64,000 bases of DNA from a virus. Taxonomy: Duplodnaviria; Caudoviricetes. The stretch lies in IMG/VR virus record IMGVR_UViG_3300028591_000084; one strand, written 5' to 3'. Below, piece by piece: positions 4,541-10,064 of the stretch (position 1 is the stretch's first letter; each line of letters begins with the position of its first letter). The position numbers and the translations under genes were made by a program. The notes under the pieces were generated by a model. That model was not told the DNA's origin and searched no databases. It worked only from the letters and a program-made list of their open reading frames with translations.

Positions 4541-5434
4541 ATGAGAAACGTTACTATTGTCTACCATAAGGTGGATTTCGACGGACTTGGCAGTGCACTA
4601 ATTGCCAAGGATGTAATGAAGGATTCCGACCATGTAATAGAACTGATCGGTTGGAACTACGGGGATCAGATCCCCAACCTTGACCGGGATGTAGTAGTCC
4701 TGGTTGACATATCATTTCCAAAAGAGATAATGAGAAGTTTAGATCCGAATCGAACAATTTGGATCGACCATCACGTCTCTGCCTTGAAAGACGCAGAGGA
4801 AGGTGGCTACAACAATCTGCCCGGTATTCGCCGGGTGGGAATCGGCGCAATAGCACTGACATGGGAGCTCTTCCATTCTGAGGGGGAACTTCCCGAGGTT
4901 ATCAGTCTTCTGGCCAAGCACGACGTTTGGTTGAAAGACGGGGAATGGGAAAGCAGAACTGTCCCGTTCCAACGCGGATTACGAACTTCATTGGGTATGA
5001 GCCTGGAGAAGCTCGAAAAGATCTGGCCCCAACTCCTCAGGGGCGAAAAAATTGAGGAGTTGATCGACTTAGGCCGTACAATTGATAAGTACGACCAAGA
5101 TCGGTTCAGCGTGGCTTTGAAGCGCTTTAGCTTCGAGGCTAAAATTGGTGATTTGACAGCTATATGCATGATGTCAAACGATTGGGGAGGACATCTGTTC
5201 CGCTCAGTCGAAAGCCAATACCCTGTTCTGGCATGTATCAACGTTGATGCACAGAAAAGCCGGCAGGGTGGAAAGAATATCTATCAGATGAGCCTTTATG
5301 GCACTGACAGATGCGATGCAGATCTTAGCATTATAGCCAAAGCCCATGGCGGCGGAGGACATGCTAGGGCATGTGGGTTCCCCTTGACGGAGGAGGAATT
5401 CATCCATCTCATGACGAGAAGGGAACTCATCTGA
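4541..5434 (+). CDS. DHH/DHHA1 family phosphoesterase
   Basis: YHKVDFDG, LVDIS, WIDHH, GGGGHARACGF. Confidence 0.9.
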   Translation: MRNVTIVYHKVDFDGLGSALIAKDVMKDSDHVIELIGWNYGDQIPNLDRDVVVLVDISFPKEIMRSLDPNRTIWIDHHVSALKDAEEGGYNNLPGIRRVGIGAIALTWELFHSEGELPEVISLLAKHDVWLKDGEWESRTVPFQRGLRTSLGMSLEKLEKIWPQLLRGEKIEELIDLGRTIDKYDQDRFSVALKRFSFEAKIGDLTAICMMSNDWGGHLFRSVESQYPVLACINVDAQKSRQGGKNIYQMSLYGTDRCDADLSIIAKAHGGGGHARACGFPLTEEEFIHLMTRRELI

Positions 5435-5442
5435 AAGGAGGG

Positions 5443-5475
5443 GGCCGAGATGTAAAAGTCTCGGCTTTCTTTTTT
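5443..5475 (+). terminator. intrinsic terminator
   Basis: GGCCGAGA-TGTAAAAG-TCTCGGCT followed by T tract. Confidence 0.7.
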
Positions 5476-5603
5476 AACTGGACTCTGTATTAGAATTCCT
5501 TCGGATCCTTATATATGTGACTGGAAGATGGAGGAGTTTAATTCCCCTTCTCTTTTTATGCCTTAAATTAGGGGGAAAATAAACCTACCTTTGAACTCTC
5601 CTC

Positions 5604-5619
5604 AAAGCCTTATATATGT
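5604..5619 (+). promoter_or_regulatory. phage promoter motif
   Basis: AAAGCCTTATATATGT; upstream ~25 nt duplicates 4411-4434. Confidence 0.7.
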
Positions 5620-6245
5620 AAGATTAGAATATTACCTAAAGGATTAGAACGATGATTCTAATCATTTAGTTTTCTGTAGTTGAAACGTATACTACTAACT
5701 TATGCAATACTAAAGGTGGTTTGGGGGACTTGCATAAGGACAATCAAGAAAAGAGAAACTTGGCTTCGTCAGGGCGAAGTAAAAATATCCAAACAGATTA
5801 GTTCATTATATATAAGAGCTGGTTACTCTTGAACTAATTTATAGGCCCTGAGCGTAATATAAGGAAAAGTAAATATATTGAACACGATAACCAGTGCTGA
5901 TCCTTTTGGTGACGCAAGTGTTATCAATTTTTAGATAAATTTTCTCCAACTGAAAAAGATTGGGGAGCGGTAAGAAGCCACTAAGAGAGGATCTTAGGAT
6001 TAGGACCTTACCAAAACGCAGTAACCGGGGTACCCTGGTGAACTCAGAAGACTTAATGTAATATCTGTATATATTCTTAAGTTGGAGGGAGCGTGGAATG
6101 TCGGGATTAGGGTACAGCCTGATTACAGATAATGATCCTTACCTGGAGAAGGTACGTAAAGTAGGAAATTATCTGTGACATGACAAAAGACCTTAAGAGA
6201 GAAACTTAAGGCAAAGAATTATATTAAGAGACGAAACCAATATTT
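5620..6245 (+). ncRNA. Large multi-pseudoknot non-coding RNA candidate
   Basis: ~620 nt with no ORF of 60 aa or more, after a promoter; many stems and loop-loop complementarities. Confidence 0.65.
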
Positions 6246-6253
6246 ATAATTAT

Positions 6254-6439
6254 ATGAAAAAGGATTTATTAATAGACGTAATGGTTTTGTTAACCATCGT
6301 CTTATTCGTTGGCTCTTTTATGGGAACCAACAGTGGATCAACGGCTGGCGCTACAGCATTTGTTACGCTAGTAGTAATCGTTCGTAAATTATTCTTCAAT
6401 GAAAATTCCCCTGTATACTGGAGGGACGTTGAGGAATAA
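6254..6439 (+). CDS. small two-helix membrane protein
   Basis: Two hydrophobic segments; terminator at 6444-6487. Confidence 0.7.
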   Translation: MKKDLLIDVMVLLTIVLFVGSFMGTNSGSTAGATAFVTLVVIVRKLFFNENSPVYWRDVEE

Positions 6440-6488
6440 ACGAAAAAGGAAGTCTAATCGTAACAATAGGCTTCCTTTTAATTTTTAT

Positions 6489-6573
6489 CATGAGTAATTA
6501 AGTAGACTTTGATTAGAGAAGTTATCTTAATCTGATGAGGCTAGATTCATTTAAGGAAAAGCCGAAACTCATG
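6489..6573 (+). ncRNA. Type III hammerhead ribozyme
   Basis: Stem III CATGAGT/ACTCATG, GUA cleavage triplet 6494-6496, stem I ATTAAG/CTTAAT, CTGATGA core, stem II GGCT/AGCC, GAAA. Confidence 0.9.
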
Positions 6574-6704
6574 GTTAACTTAACGCTAACTAAAGACTTA
6601 ATATTCTAATCTTTGTAACTACTTAATATCCTTAAATTGGAGACGTAGTTTATTTTTTTTTTCATCCCGTTAATTCTTTATTTATGATTAAATAACGCAA
6701 ATAT

Positions 6705-6989
6705 ATGGAAAAAGAACAACTTTCTAAGATTTTTGAGTCAACTTATAAAAGAATTGACGAAAGAATAGAGGATCAGAAGAAGATTCTAGAGTCTATTCAT
6801 GAAAAGACTATTAAAGATCGTGTAAAAAGTTTCTTCCAAAGTGAGGAGGAGAACTGTGACAGAAAACGTCGTGCAGGATTAGTGCATGAGGCAATCAAGG
6901 AAACTCACGAAAGAGAGCTTGAAAATCTACTCTTAGTGCGTGAAGGAGTAGAAATGATTGAAAATGAAATAAACAAAGAAGGGGCTTAG
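6705..6989 (+). CDS. hypothetical coiled-coil protein
   Basis: 94 aa ORF after a promoter motif. Confidence 0.65.
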   Translation: MEKEQLSKIFESTYKRIDERIEDQKKILESIHEKTIKDRVKSFFQSEEENCDRKRRAGLVHEAIKETHERELENLLLVREGVEMIENEINKEGA

Positions 6990-7033
6990 TGCCTCTTTTT
7001 CTTTTCATCCCGCCTAATCACCTTATTCCTGAT

Positions 7034-8413
7034 ATGAAAGAAATATTAAAATTTATTGGAGAAATAGCAGAAGAATTAGGATTGTCTGCTTATGTTGTTG
7101 GAGGTTATGTCCGTGATGAGATACTTGGACGTAACTCTTATGATATTGATATCCTGGTTGTGGGAAAGGGAGTGAAGCTAGCCGAAGAAGTTGGTAAGAG
7201 AACTAATTCTAAGGTTCTAGTTTTTAAGAATTTTGGAACAGCTCAACTCATCTACCAGGAACAAGTTATAGAATTTGTTGGTGCTAGAAAAGAGTCATAT
7301 CAAAGAGGATCCAGAAAGCCTATAGTTGAAGAAGGAACTTTGGAAGACGATTTAACAAGGCGGGATTTTACAATTAATGCTATTGCCAAATCAATAATGC
7401 CAAGAGATTTTGGAACTATTATTGATTTGTTTGGTGGCCAGGAAGATATTAAACTTGGTATTATAAAATCCCCTACTGATCCTTTAATAACCTTTTCTGA
7501 CGATCCTCTTAGAATGCTGAGGGCTATAAGATTTGCCACAACACTAGGCTTTGAAATAGATCCAACTACTTTTGAAGCAATCAAAAAAACTGTTGATAGA
7601 TTAGATATTATCAGTCCAGAAAGGATTACCACAGAATTATGCAAGATTATGTCATCTAATGATCCTGGAACTGGAATAGATTTACTAAAGGAGTCAGGTC
7701 TTTTAAAGAAGATTATACCGGAACTTGATATTCTTGATACCTCAGATAGTGAATGTGGTCGAGGTCATAAGAATAATTACTGGCACTCTGTTCAAGTCCT
7801 AAGAGGTGTTGCTGATAAGTCTAATTCTTTATGGCTTAGATGGGCAGCGCTTCTTCACGATATAGGTAAAGAGCCTACAAAGAAGTTTATAGGTGGGGAC
7901 GAAGGTTGGTCTTTTATTGGTCATGAGGCTATCGGTGCTGATATGGCTGAGGTCATATTTAGAAGATTGAAATTACCATTGGGAGATACAGTAAAGTATG
8001 TTAAAAAGCTAATCAATCTTCATATGAGACCTGCTTATATTAGTACTAGTGAAATAACAGACTCTGGTGTTAGACGGCTCTTATTTGATGCTGGTGATGA
8101 TTTTGATGATTTAATGATCCTTTGTAGATCTGACTTGACAACAAAGAGAGAGGATAAAAGGGAGAGAATTGAAAAGCACTATGATCAACTCCAAAGTCTC
8201 GTTAGTGATCTTAAAGAAAGGGATCAAAGAAGATTATTCCAACCTTGTATAAACGGAAATGATATTAAAGAGCGCTACGGACTTAGAACTGGAAGACTAG
8301 TGGGTCAACTTAAGAATTTTATTAAAGAAGGAGTTTTAGATGGGAGACTAGAAAACACCAGATCCTGTCTATTTAAAGCGCTGGATGAAGAATGGAATCG
8401 GATAAAGAAATAA
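7034..8413 (+). CDS. cca: CCA-adding tRNA nucleotidyltransferase with HD domain
   Basis: VGGYVRD, DIDI, RRDFTINA, DPLRMLRAIRF, LLHDIGK; ATG at 7034 preferred over GTG at 6989. Confidence 0.9.
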   Translation: MKEILKFIGEIAEELGLSAYVVGGYVRDEILGRNSYDIDILVVGKGVKLAEEVGKRTNSKVLVFKNFGTAQLIYQEQVIEFVGARKESYQRGSRKPIVEEGTLEDDLTRRDFTINAIAKSIMPRDFGTIIDLFGGQEDIKLGIIKSPTDPLITFSDDPLRMLRAIRFATTLGFEIDPTTFEAIKKTVDRLDIISPERITTELCKIMSSNDPGTGIDLLKESGLLKKIIPELDILDTSDSECGRGHKNNYWHSVQVLRGVADKSNSLWLRWAALLHDIGKEPTKKFIGGDEGWSFIGHEAIGADMAEVIFRRLKLPLGDTVKYVKKLINLHMRPAYISTSEITDSGVRRLLFDAGDDFDDLMILCRSDLTTKREDKRERIEKHYDQLQSLVSDLKERDQRRLFQPCINGNDIKERYGLRTGRLVGQLKNFIKEGVLDGRLENTRSCLFKALDEEWNRIKK

Positions 8414-9006
8414 AACTTATTGTTTTTGCTATCCAACCAGACTATGAATTTCCTCTAACAATACCAGAAAAGCAGCGGGTACTTCAATCAAATCTAGAAG
8501 ACTGCTCAATTTTAAAAAGAGTTGAAGTCCTTAAAGCCTTCTTTGAAAATCTGAAGGATGATACTCAAACTCAAATTATTAAAACAAAAGATATAGTGCT
8601 GCTTGAGACTATAATCAGATTCTTAGCTTCTCATGAAAAGTATGAGAGTAAGGTAAAGTATGCTCTAGAGACTGTAGATGGTGCTGTCAGTCATAGTAAA
8701 CTCTGGTTTCTTAGTAGCAAGGTGATGTGGATGAGGGTATCCAGTTTATGTGGAAGAAAACACGCCTCTCTATTTCGTGGAATGTGGTCGTGGACTAGGA
8801 CGGAAGATAATTGGAGAGTAGGTAGACGACCACCAAAGAATAAAACTATTCTTGTTTGGAAGAGCGGCATGGGAGAGCCTATTGTCGCTAAAGTCGGACC
8901 AAATCGAGATTTTCAGCCCTTAGATCCTTCGGTTAAACTGGAAGGAAAAGATTATATGTGGAAAGTAATTGATTTTAAAACACCAATAATTTATGAAGAA
9001 CGTTAA
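8392..9006 (+). CDS. hypothetical protein
   Basis: 204 aa ORF. Confidence 0.6.
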   Translation: MESDKEIKLIVFAIQPDYEFPLTIPEKQRVLQSNLEDCSILKRVEVLKAFFENLKDDTQTQIIKTKDIVLLETIIRFLASHEKYESKVKYALETVDGAVSHSKLWFLSSKVMWMRVSSLCGRKHASLFRGMWSWTRTEDNWRVGRRPPKNKTILVWKSGMGEPIVAKVGPNRDFQPLDPSVKLEGKDYMWKVIDFKTPIIYEER

Positions 9007-9145
9007 AAAGATTAGTTTAGCAGCCCTTGGAATAATGGGAATCACAATACTCGGCACAATTGCGGTAGGTTATTATACTGTCATTTCTGCCGTCAAAGGA
9101 ATTCAGGAGATGAAGTTGGAAGATGAAGACCTCTTGGATGGATAA
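8993..9145 (+). CDS. small membrane protein (50 aa, not in the ORF track)
   Basis: MKNVKKISLAALGIMGITILGTIAVGYYTVISAVKGIQEMKLEDEDLLDG fills the gap, overlapping both neighbours. Confidence 0.6.
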   Translation: MKNVKKISLAALGIMGITILGTIAVGYYTVISAVKGIQEMKLEDEDLLDG

Positions 9146-9320
9146 ACTAGTAGGAATCTTATTCTGTGGAGCTGGGTTTATATTTTTAGCATTAGGCCTA
9201 TATCTCCTCAGTGTTCATAGTAGAGTTCTTGGGATTGGAGCTGGCTGCTATGTGATATATAAGATTCTCTATCATATTGGATATTATTTGATCTATGGAG
9301 AAGAAAAAGAACAAAGGTAA
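9123..9320 (+). CDS. small membrane protein
   Basis: Two hydrophobic helices. Confidence 0.6.
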   Translation: MKTSWMDKLVGILFCGAGFIFLALGLYLLSVHSRVLGIGAGCYVIYKILYHIGYYLIYGEEKEQR

Positions 9321-9969
9321 ACACTTAGCATTCCTTTTAAGACATGATACCTCTTATCCTTATAGAGAAGATGGTTGGAGAGAGGTTAGCGATTTGGTGA
9401 AGAACCATGGATTTACAAGAGAAGAACTTGAAACCCTTGTTAAAACTGATGAAAAGGGGAGGTATGAATTTGATCTAGAGAAGAGAAGAATAAGGGCCGT
9501 TCAAGGACACAGTATTCCCGGAGTTAAGCCAGATTCTATTATCTTAGCAACACCTCCAACTATTCTATACCATGGAACAAGTAGTAAGTATATTAGTAGC
9601 ATTATGTCAGGTGGCTTAGAGAAAAGAAACAGAAATCATGTTCATCTATCTGAAGATCCTGATACTGCTAGAAAGGTCGGAGCAAGACATGGAGGGGGAT
9701 TTCCTGTCATCATTTATGTTAAAGCAAAAAAGTTTTTTGATGATGGGCATAAGATATTTAAATCTGCCAATGGAGTATGGTTAACAGAAGATTCTATACC
9801 CTATAAAGACTATTGCTTTTTATTACCTGATACCTTAACACTTGGGACATTAAGTTGTGAAGACTGTACAGCGGCTAAATACTGTAGAAAGGAACATTGT
9901 CAAGCAAATACTTCATTTTGTGATGTTCCTGTTTATTATAATGATTTTGAAAACCAGTCAAATCTTTAA
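9295..9969 (+). CDS. kptA: RNA 2'-phosphotransferase Tpt1/KptA
   Basis: LLRH, DEKGRY, IRAVQGHS, LYHGT, RNHVHLS, SANGVWLT. Confidence 0.93.
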   Translation: MEKKKNKGKHLAFLLRHDTSYPYREDGWREVSDLVKNHGFTREELETLVKTDEKGRYEFDLEKRRIRAVQGHSIPGVKPDSIILATPPTILYHGTSSKYISSIMSGGLEKRNRNHVHLSEDPDTARKVGARHGGGFPVIIYVKAKKFFDDGHKIFKSANGVWLTEDSIPYKDYCFLLPDTLTLGTLSCEDCTAAKYCRKEHCQANTSFCDVPVYYNDFENQSNL

Positions 9970-10048: not shown

Positions 10049-10064
10049 AAAACCTTATATATGA
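10049..10064 (+). promoter_or_regulatory. phage promoter motif
   Basis: AAAACCTTATATATGA. Confidence 0.7.

Follow-up and report, generated by a model that had tools for sequence, protein, structure and literature searches.

The plus strand of a 64,000-nucleotide stretch of Caudoviricetes DNA (IMG/VR virus record IMGVR_UViG_3300028591_000084; hereafter the window) encodes, at positions 5620–6232, a real, conserved and highly structured RNA with about 20 helices and two long-range pseudoknots. It probably belongs to a class of large functional RNAs not described before. The RNA family itself is new; the broader phenomenon of ornate large RNAs encoded by phages close to tRNA genes is already known. 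The RNA lies in a gene-free stretch of about 820 bases (5435–6253) between a DHH phosphoesterase gene (4541–5434) and a 61-aa ORF (6254–6439), and the unit of which it appears to be part has the following features.

5608–5619, plus strand: phage promoter motif, the 12-mer CCTTATATATGT, abutting the 5′ side of the RNA; a second copy is at 5507–5518.
5620–6232, plus strand: large structured RNA of about 610 nt with a structured core at 5636–6231, identified by covariation and nhmmer.
6254–6439, plus strand: 61-aa ORF, a predicted two-helix membrane protein with positional homologues in other lineages.
6444–6487, plus strand: terminator-like hairpin (6444–6479) followed by a U-rich run, located as inverted repeat I19 and invariant among strains.
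6487–6575, plus strand: type III hammerhead found by descriptor search, with predicted cleavage after 6496.

The preliminary description of this DNA had stated that the RNA region contained no long ORF, and no ORF of more than 50 aa was found in 5435–6253 with code 11, code 4 or TAG read as Q. A 99-codon stop-free stretch on the minus strand (5842–6138) was considered as a protein and rejected. It has no start before its last 36 codons, is broken in a second lineage (L011, longest run 50 codons), and its translations are unrelated between lineages (E 0.032 over 15 aa), so that it is not a conserved protein. This antisense stretch probably reflects the purine-rich sense strand.

The window carries jumbo-phage genes, including those for the DHH phosphoesterase, a CCA-adding enzyme, Tpt1, a fused SbcCD and a phage RNA polymerase beta-like subunit. 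Homologues of the RNA were reached via relatives of the CCA-adding enzyme, a 20-nt DNA pattern and an nhmmer profile, and were found in three other jumbo-phage lineages (L011, L012 with its twin L016, and L026) and in two strain variants (L007 and L008), whose contigs cover the 3′ part of the RNA. Identity of the RNA between the four lineages was 53–64%, with nhmmer E-values of 1e-154 to 1e-178. Relatives of the CCA-adding enzyme comprised, in order, a 99% identical strain form, forms with 57–62% identity on large contigs, and Bacteroidales enzymes at about 52%. In L011, which has a 62% CCA relative, a 937-nt gene-free gap is followed by a 61-aa ORF and then the CCA gene, and the gap sequence is visibly homologous to that of the window. 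L012 was recovered with the 20-nt pattern, taken from the most conserved hairpin, and is located on a 353-kb IMG/VR contig. With the nhmmer profile a truncated copy was detected in L025; the full copy is in L026, downstream of a DHH gene. The carriers form a jumbo-phage clade with a CCA-adding enzyme most similar to Bacteroidales enzymes. Genes of RNA metabolism lie around the unit in every lineage (window 4541–9969; L012 5177–8812; L026 2396–3319): a DHH/DHHA1 phosphoesterase in the window, L012 and L026, a CCA-adding enzyme with an HD domain in the window, L011 and L026, Tpt1/KptA in the window, and a Glu/Gln-tRNA synthetase in L012.

Other searches added no lineage. Locus searches of genome and viral contig collections with the DHH and CCA proteins returned no relatives, and a search of the phage nucleotide collection returned no match. 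Neither the gap nor the RNA was present beside the gene for the closest DHH relative (41% identity, L001–L005), and the unit was not beside the gene in the CCA relatives L009, L010, L022–L024 and the P0099 contig (gene table only). Matches to the 20-mer pattern in metagenome and genome contigs were due to chance, except for L016. Further DNA patterns likewise gave chance matches only (L018–L021, L027–L039) or no new locus, indicating that the RNA family is rare in the collections searched, with four lineages.

Folding of 5600–6260 as a single sequence gave a z-score against shuffles of -6.3 for the plus strand and -3.7 for the minus strand. Homologues in L012 and L026 gave z-scores of -6.1 and -3.1, and the same helices were recovered from them by single-sequence folding. 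A curated alignment was built by locating the helices in each lineage by coordinates and fitting them by hand to the structure. It comprised 21 helices and 124 pair columns, with standard pairs in 97.9% of 473 cells. Sixty-six columns were fully paired and changed on both sides, compared with 16.1 ± 3.3 when the 3′ letters were permuted within columns (0 of 2000 shuffles reached 66). Sliding the partner by 1–3 nt lowered pairing to 31–43%. Because this alignment was fitted by hand, the helices of the window were also projected onto a structure-blind MAFFT alignment (A4). Here 86.0% of cells were paired (75.4 ± 1.1 in shuffles) and 47 pairs were changed on both sides (21.3 ± 3.1 in shuffles, 0 of 500 reaching 47), with only 7–13 such pairs for slid partners. 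P2, P4, P5, PK1, P10b, P10c, P11 and P15 were 100% paired on the MAFFT alignment and P3 was 96.9% paired. These counts come from four independent lineages, too few to give power in formal R-scape-type statistics. Thirty G·U cells would be mismatches if read from the other strand, which supports reading of the RNA from the plus strand. The preliminary description had seen a large ornate non-coding RNA and named homologue collection and covariation as a check; the two-sided changes in both alignments, well above their shuffles, bear out a structured RNA in all four lineages.

The individual elements of the fold are as follows.

5636–5669, plus strand: P1, the 5′ hairpin, 13 bp with one G·A mismatch; left out of the statistics.
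5676–5695, plus strand: P2, GUAGU/ACUAC with a near-invariant 10-nt loop, UGAAACGUAU; a U-A pair becomes C-G in L026.
5699–5738, plus strand: P3, 9 bp with a near-invariant 22-nt loop and compensatory changes in 5 of 9 columns.
5744–5779, plus strand: P4 (5744–5763) and P5 (5764–5779), 100% paired with compensatory changes.
5846–5851, plus strand: PK1, CCCUGA pairing with the P5 loop (5769–5774), 100% paired in four lineages.
5797–5838, plus strand: long hairpin P6a/P6b, with compensatory changes in 6 of 8 columns of P6a and 3 of 4 of P6b.
5819–5825 with 5888–5894, plus strand: PK2, formed by the P6b loop, with an invariant GUU/AAC core.
5943–5966, plus strand: P9 hairpin with a conserved purine loop, UGAAAAA, and compensatory changes in 6 of 8 columns.
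5969–6012, plus strand: P10a/c/b arm with a terminal GANRA pentaloop.
6016–6019 with 6091–6094, plus strand: junction helix X (tentative), enclosing P11 and P12.
6016–6094, plus strand: P11 (6020–6044) and P12 (6051–6082), inside helix X.
6105–6176, plus strand: P13 (6105–6124) and P14 (6125–6176), directly abutting in all four lineages.
6191–6211, plus strand: P15 hairpin with a conserved loop, AGAGAAR, and 3 of 7 pairs changed on both sides.
5671–5675 with 6227–6231, plus strand: closing helix P0 (tentative), supported in three lineages only.

PK1 is the strongest single feature of the fold. It joins the whole 6-nt loop of P5 to the six bases just 5′ of an invariant GCGUA, reading UCAGGG/CCCUGA in the window, UCUGGU/ACCAGA in L011, UCUGAG/CUCAGA in L012 and UCAGGG/CCUUGA in L026. 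This pairing had been proposed from the window alone, and it covaries at 3 of 6 positions while remaining fully paired. The second proposed pseudoknot, CTGGTTA/TAACCAG, corresponds to PK2 and combines its invariant core with one swap from G-C to U-A. A third, GTACCCT/AGGGTAC, can form in the window and L011 but in neither L012 nor L026, and competes with the covariation-supported hairpins P11 and P13; it was rejected because it is unconserved and would break these two covarying hairpins. Five of the six stems first read by eye recur as P3 (CTTATGCAA/TTGCATAAG), P6a (ATTAGTTCA/TGAACTAAT), P10a (GGTAAG/CTTACC), P14a (ACAGATAAT/ATTATCTGT) and P15 (CCTTAAG/CTTAAGG), each with its pairing kept by compensatory changes in the four lineages. 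The stem GATTAGAAT/ATTCTAATC also exists, but its register was wrong: P1 is formed by the second copy, GATTAGAA (5642–5649), with 5656–5663. The position of P1 holds a hairpin in all four lineages, with differing sequences (by eye).

Two-sided changes on the MAFFT alignment affected 5 of 6 pairs of P10b and 1 of 2 of P10c. P14 ends in a GGAGA-type pentaloop, and compensatory columns numbered 8 of 9 in P14a and 4 of 5 in P14c. Helix X changes from CGC/GCG to CAC/GUG in L026. A long-range helix P7 (GCGU/ACGC) was also considered and set aside; it is weakened by a C·A in L026, where the alternative, helix X, gains a compensatory change. P0 ends about 20 nt upstream of the AUG of the small ORF in three lineages, and its 5′ strand could pair with the start codon only in L026 (by eye).

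The P11 loop (6030–6033) consists of 4 nt that read GUAC, GAUC, ACGU and GAUC in the four lineages and is always its own reverse complement. Its letters thus change while the palindrome is kept, as in the loops of OLE- and GOLLD-type homo-oligomers. Adjacent bases of a loop are unable to pair within one chain, and the palindrome was taken as a lead to a homodimer. The same covariation pattern has been used in support of intermolecular kissing contacts in OLE (GGCC, GAUC, AGCU) and GOLLD (PMC12286853). The RNA probably forms a homodimer by way of the P11 loop, which is only 4 nt long if the closing G-C pairs form and is then short for a kissing contact.

No Rfam 15 family matched the large RNA in any of its four copies, either at gathering scores or at E up to 10, in keeping with the earlier suggestion of a possible new class. 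The covariance models for ROOL (RF03087), GOLLD (RF01998, including its conserved 3′ domain) and OLE (RF01071) found no counterpart, and group I and group II introns, RNase P RNA, tmRNA and 6S RNA were absent from the matches at E up to 10. These permissive scans cover the families that the preliminary description had listed for comparison (ROOL, GOLLD, OLE, RNase P, group I/II). Weak matches to microRNAs, snoRNAs and Pistol were treated as noise; the Pistol match in L012 scored 19 bits (E 0.84) and was absent elsewhere. No paper describing this RNA was found in the literature collection searched.

OLE (RF01071) is carried by Bacillota extremophiles. The RNA described here resembles it in having about 610 nt and many helices and in lying immediately upstream of, and apparently being co-transcribed with, a gene for a small membrane protein (OapA in the case of OLE). 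There is no match in sequence or structure, however, and the RNA is carried by a jumbo phage, whose hosts are probably Bacteroidales, rather than by a Bacillota chromosome. The small protein has two helices, 58–82 aa and no Pfam or PHROG family, and the likeness to oapA is one of arrangement only. OLE forms dimers, and in a loop at one of the dimer contacts the four central nucleotides change from one palindrome to another (PMC12286853), as in the P11 loop here. ROOL is a large pseudoknotted phage RNA, often located beside tRNA genes, that forms homo-oligomers via kissing loops (PMC12286853). The present RNA has a comparable context in being encoded by jumbo phages, with a tRNA-like element directly upstream in L011 and L026 and not in the window or L012, but its helix layout is unlike that of ROOL, which lacks a linked membrane-protein ORF and a hammerhead. 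GOLLD is an ornate RNA of phages and prophages found near tRNAs, in which a covarying palindromic loop supports an intermolecular contact (PMC12286853). It differs in its length of more than 800 nt, in its unrelated sequence and structure and in having no linked small membrane-protein ORF.

The small proteins of the unit (61, 62, 61, 58 and 82 aa) have MKK, two hydrophobic helices, an RKLF motif and an acidic tail in common. They belong to no Pfam or PHROG family. A word-index search with the 61-aa protein found nothing, an exhaustive HMMER search found only the strain form, at 72% identity, and an Atlas look-up gave generic membrane hairpins only; across lineages the small proteins have diverged beyond the reach of HMMER. 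An A/U-rich spacer separates RNA and ORF; it measures 21–27 nt from the last conserved pairing in three lineages and, in L026, 48 nt from P15. In all four lineages the ORF adjoins the RNA and no terminator was found between them, which is consistent with the earlier prediction of co-transcription with a 61-aa membrane protein; because no terminator separates them, RNA and ORF are treated as one putative unit. Comparison with the strain variants L007 and L008 showed nucleotide identities of 96–98% for the RNA, 98.5–98.9% for the non-coding sequence after the ORF and 80–87% for the ORF, and the small protein was 74% identical at the amino-acid level. Non-coding identity therefore exceeds that of the ORF among strains, which indicates that selection is strongest on the non-coding parts.

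The promoter motif CCTTATATATGT occurs in three exact copies in the window (4439, 5507 and 5608) and in copies with one mismatch at 10053, 10356, 52285 (minus strand) and 52375 (minus strand). All copies are intergenic, are oriented with the adjacent genes and have their upstream context in common, and the motif precedes the unit in all four lineages. A scan for sigma-70 promoters found none at 5600–5620. The consensus promoter reported earlier at the start of the RNA is thus present as a promoter motif, but one specific to the phage and not of the sigma-70 consensus. Across the phage group the recurrent promoter-like motif can be written as (A)AAGCCTTATATATG(T/A) and is often located right behind the T-rich tail of a terminator; it probably drives a single temporal class of genes.

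Between the tandem promoters, positions 5519–5607 form a short unit with a hairpin at about 5543–5578 (UUCCCCU/AGGGGAA), which may be a small RNA. A similar promoter-plus-hairpin unit precedes the tRNA-like element in L011. The first bases of the large RNA (5620–5634) have a perfect 15-nt complement at 6599–6613, the longest in 200 shuffles being 13. The 6599–6613 copy is invariant in the strain contigs L007 and L008, neither of which extends to 5620–5634. As a family feature this complement was rejected, being without counterpart in L011 or L012.

Downstream of the small ORF, terminator-like hairpins equivalent to that at 6444–6479 were read in L011 and L012. The descriptor search identified exactly one hammerhead each in the window, L011 (7817–7903), L012/L016 (11576–11497 on the minus strand of L012), L007 and L008, always 3′ of the small ORF, and none in 13 kb of L026. 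These elements have CUGANGA and GAAA cores, stems I–III with an open stem III, and a GUA triplet at which cleavage is predicted. Their stems of 6/4/9, 7/5/11 and 7/4/5 bp differ in sequence between lineages while the core is kept. The match to Rfam RF00008 reached 17.6 bits against a gathering score of 48.5, with a different stem III aligned by the model; the low score is attributed to a long loop carried by stem I. Hammerheads of RF00008 are found between bacterial and phage genes, and the element at 6487–6575 has the same cores, three stems and GUA triplet; it is an accessory of the unit and distinct from the large RNA. The sequence that follows the hammerhead (window 6576–6665, L011 7904–7995, L012 11496–11400) contains a common AACTAAAG in three lineages. 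It is closed by a second terminator-like hairpin bearing a long run of T and is invariant among strains. Cleavage at the hammerhead would yield a small RNA of about 165 nt with a 5′-OH and the ribozyme at its start.

On the upstream side, tRNA-like elements are located between promoter and RNA in L011 (6841–6923) and L026 (3548–3628) and end directly at the 5′ side of the RNA. Each scored 49 bits with the Rfam tRNA model, with normal acceptor, D and T arms and an over-long anticodon arm for which ARAGORN gave the odd anticodons AUA and AAU. These elements may serve as signals for processing and not in decoding, or may be tRNAs that contain small introns. No such element was present upstream of the RNA in the window or L012. 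With no hammerhead in the 13 kb of L026 and no tRNA-like element in the window or L012, neither of the two is obligatory.

Taken as a whole, the observations are best explained by a conserved new RNA that is the main functional product of a promoter–RNA–ORF unit and that possibly dimerises and forms a ribonucleoprotein, a reading we favour on balance. The RNA would start at the phage-specific promoter and form one unit with the two-helix membrane protein, and this unit would be bracketed by RNA-processing signals, with tRNA-like elements upstream in two lineages and a terminator and hammerhead downstream in three. It would act as a folded molecule and not as an ordinary mRNA leader. Its 5′ end may be set by the promoter or by tRNA-type processing and its 3′ end by termination or hammerhead cleavage. 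The RNA may act alone or, by analogy with OLE and OapA, as a ribonucleoprotein with the co-encoded membrane micro-protein. A point against this reading is that RNA and ORF are separated by neither a terminator nor a recognisable processing site, an arrangement that fits a leader role too. A more far-reaching version is rather doubtful: a self-dimerising RNA, cut out by tRNA-type and hammerhead processing, would form a membrane-tethered ribonucleoprotein with the micro-protein, as an independently arisen phage counterpart of OLE–OapA whose target would be the host envelope or the timing of infection.

The main rival reading is that of a giant leader acting in cis, which as a riboregulator or sensor would solely control translation or stability of the mRNA for the small membrane protein; this protein could be holin-like or another toxic membrane peptide. 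Such a leader would account for the position of the ORF beside the RNA, unseparated by a terminator, in all four lineages, and for a structured core that stops, via the tentative P0, about 20 nt before the AUG in three lineages; in L026 the P0 5′ strand could even pair with the start codon, as judged by eye. Class II holins are typically small two-helix proteins with charged tails, and the small proteins of the unit have this form. However, with 20 helices, two pseudoknots and numerous invariant loops in about 610 nt, the RNA goes far beyond known cis-regulators, and it is conserved much better than the ORF that it would regulate. No consistent expression platform is apparent, no endolysin or lysis cassette lies nearby, and processing signals of the tRNA-like and hammerhead kinds point to a separate RNA product. 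Purely cis-acting control is thus considered unlikely. A further rival is an RNA-only homo-oligomer or cage of the ROOL/GOLLD type, with no protein partner and the ORF as a passenger. A phage-encoded, pseudoknotted RNA of about 600 nt beside tRNA-like genes in two lineages, with a P11 loop that is palindromic in every lineage, has traits common to ROOL and GOLLD (PMC12286853). The RNA shows no similarity to either family, however, and an assembly of this kind leaves the strict linkage of the small ORF in all four lineages unexplained, which makes it quite improbable.

A new ribozyme, or an element that processes its own transcript (by cleavage, ligation or capping, for instance), would explain the many invariant unpaired nucleotides (the P2 and P3 loops, GAGCGUA, CUGUAUA, UACAG and AGAGAAR). 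GNRA-like pentaloops are typical of large ribozymes, and the RNA has three of them; its neighbourhood is rich in RNA-end chemistry (the CCA enzyme with its HD domain, Tpt1 and DHH). No exon or junction context is recognisable, however, no RNA ligase was found nearby, and there is no match to known ribozymes apart from the Pistol match of 19 bits (E 0.84), in L012 only. A catalytic role of this sort is very unlikely. Still less credible is that the region does not act as RNA at all. On that reading the fold would have arisen by chance, the sequence would serve at the DNA level (for example as an origin or as palindromes bound by proteins), or a coding region would have been missed. In its favour, hairpins abound in this AT-rich genome, the antisense stop-free stretch of the window is matched by one in L012, and P11 is also a DNA palindrome. 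Against this stand the compensatory changes in nearly every helix and the strand-specific G·U pairs, and other genetic codes open no frame.

Very few large, intricate non-ribosomal RNA classes are known in bacteria and phages, among them OLE, GOLLD, ROOL, HEARO and raiA, and each new class has opened questions about what RNA is able to do with few proteins or none. The RNA described here is unrelated to these five in sequence and fold. To the ornate large phage RNAs the unit adds a linked membrane micro-protein and punctuation by ribozyme and tRNA-like elements. It also offers testable handles, in that it has a gene for a candidate partner membrane protein, flanking elements that predict its ends and a palindromic loop that predicts dimerisation, and the RNA lends itself to cryo-EM through its compact size. 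Jumbo phages of gut or rumen hosts of the Bacteroidales type appear to carry unexplored RNA machinery.
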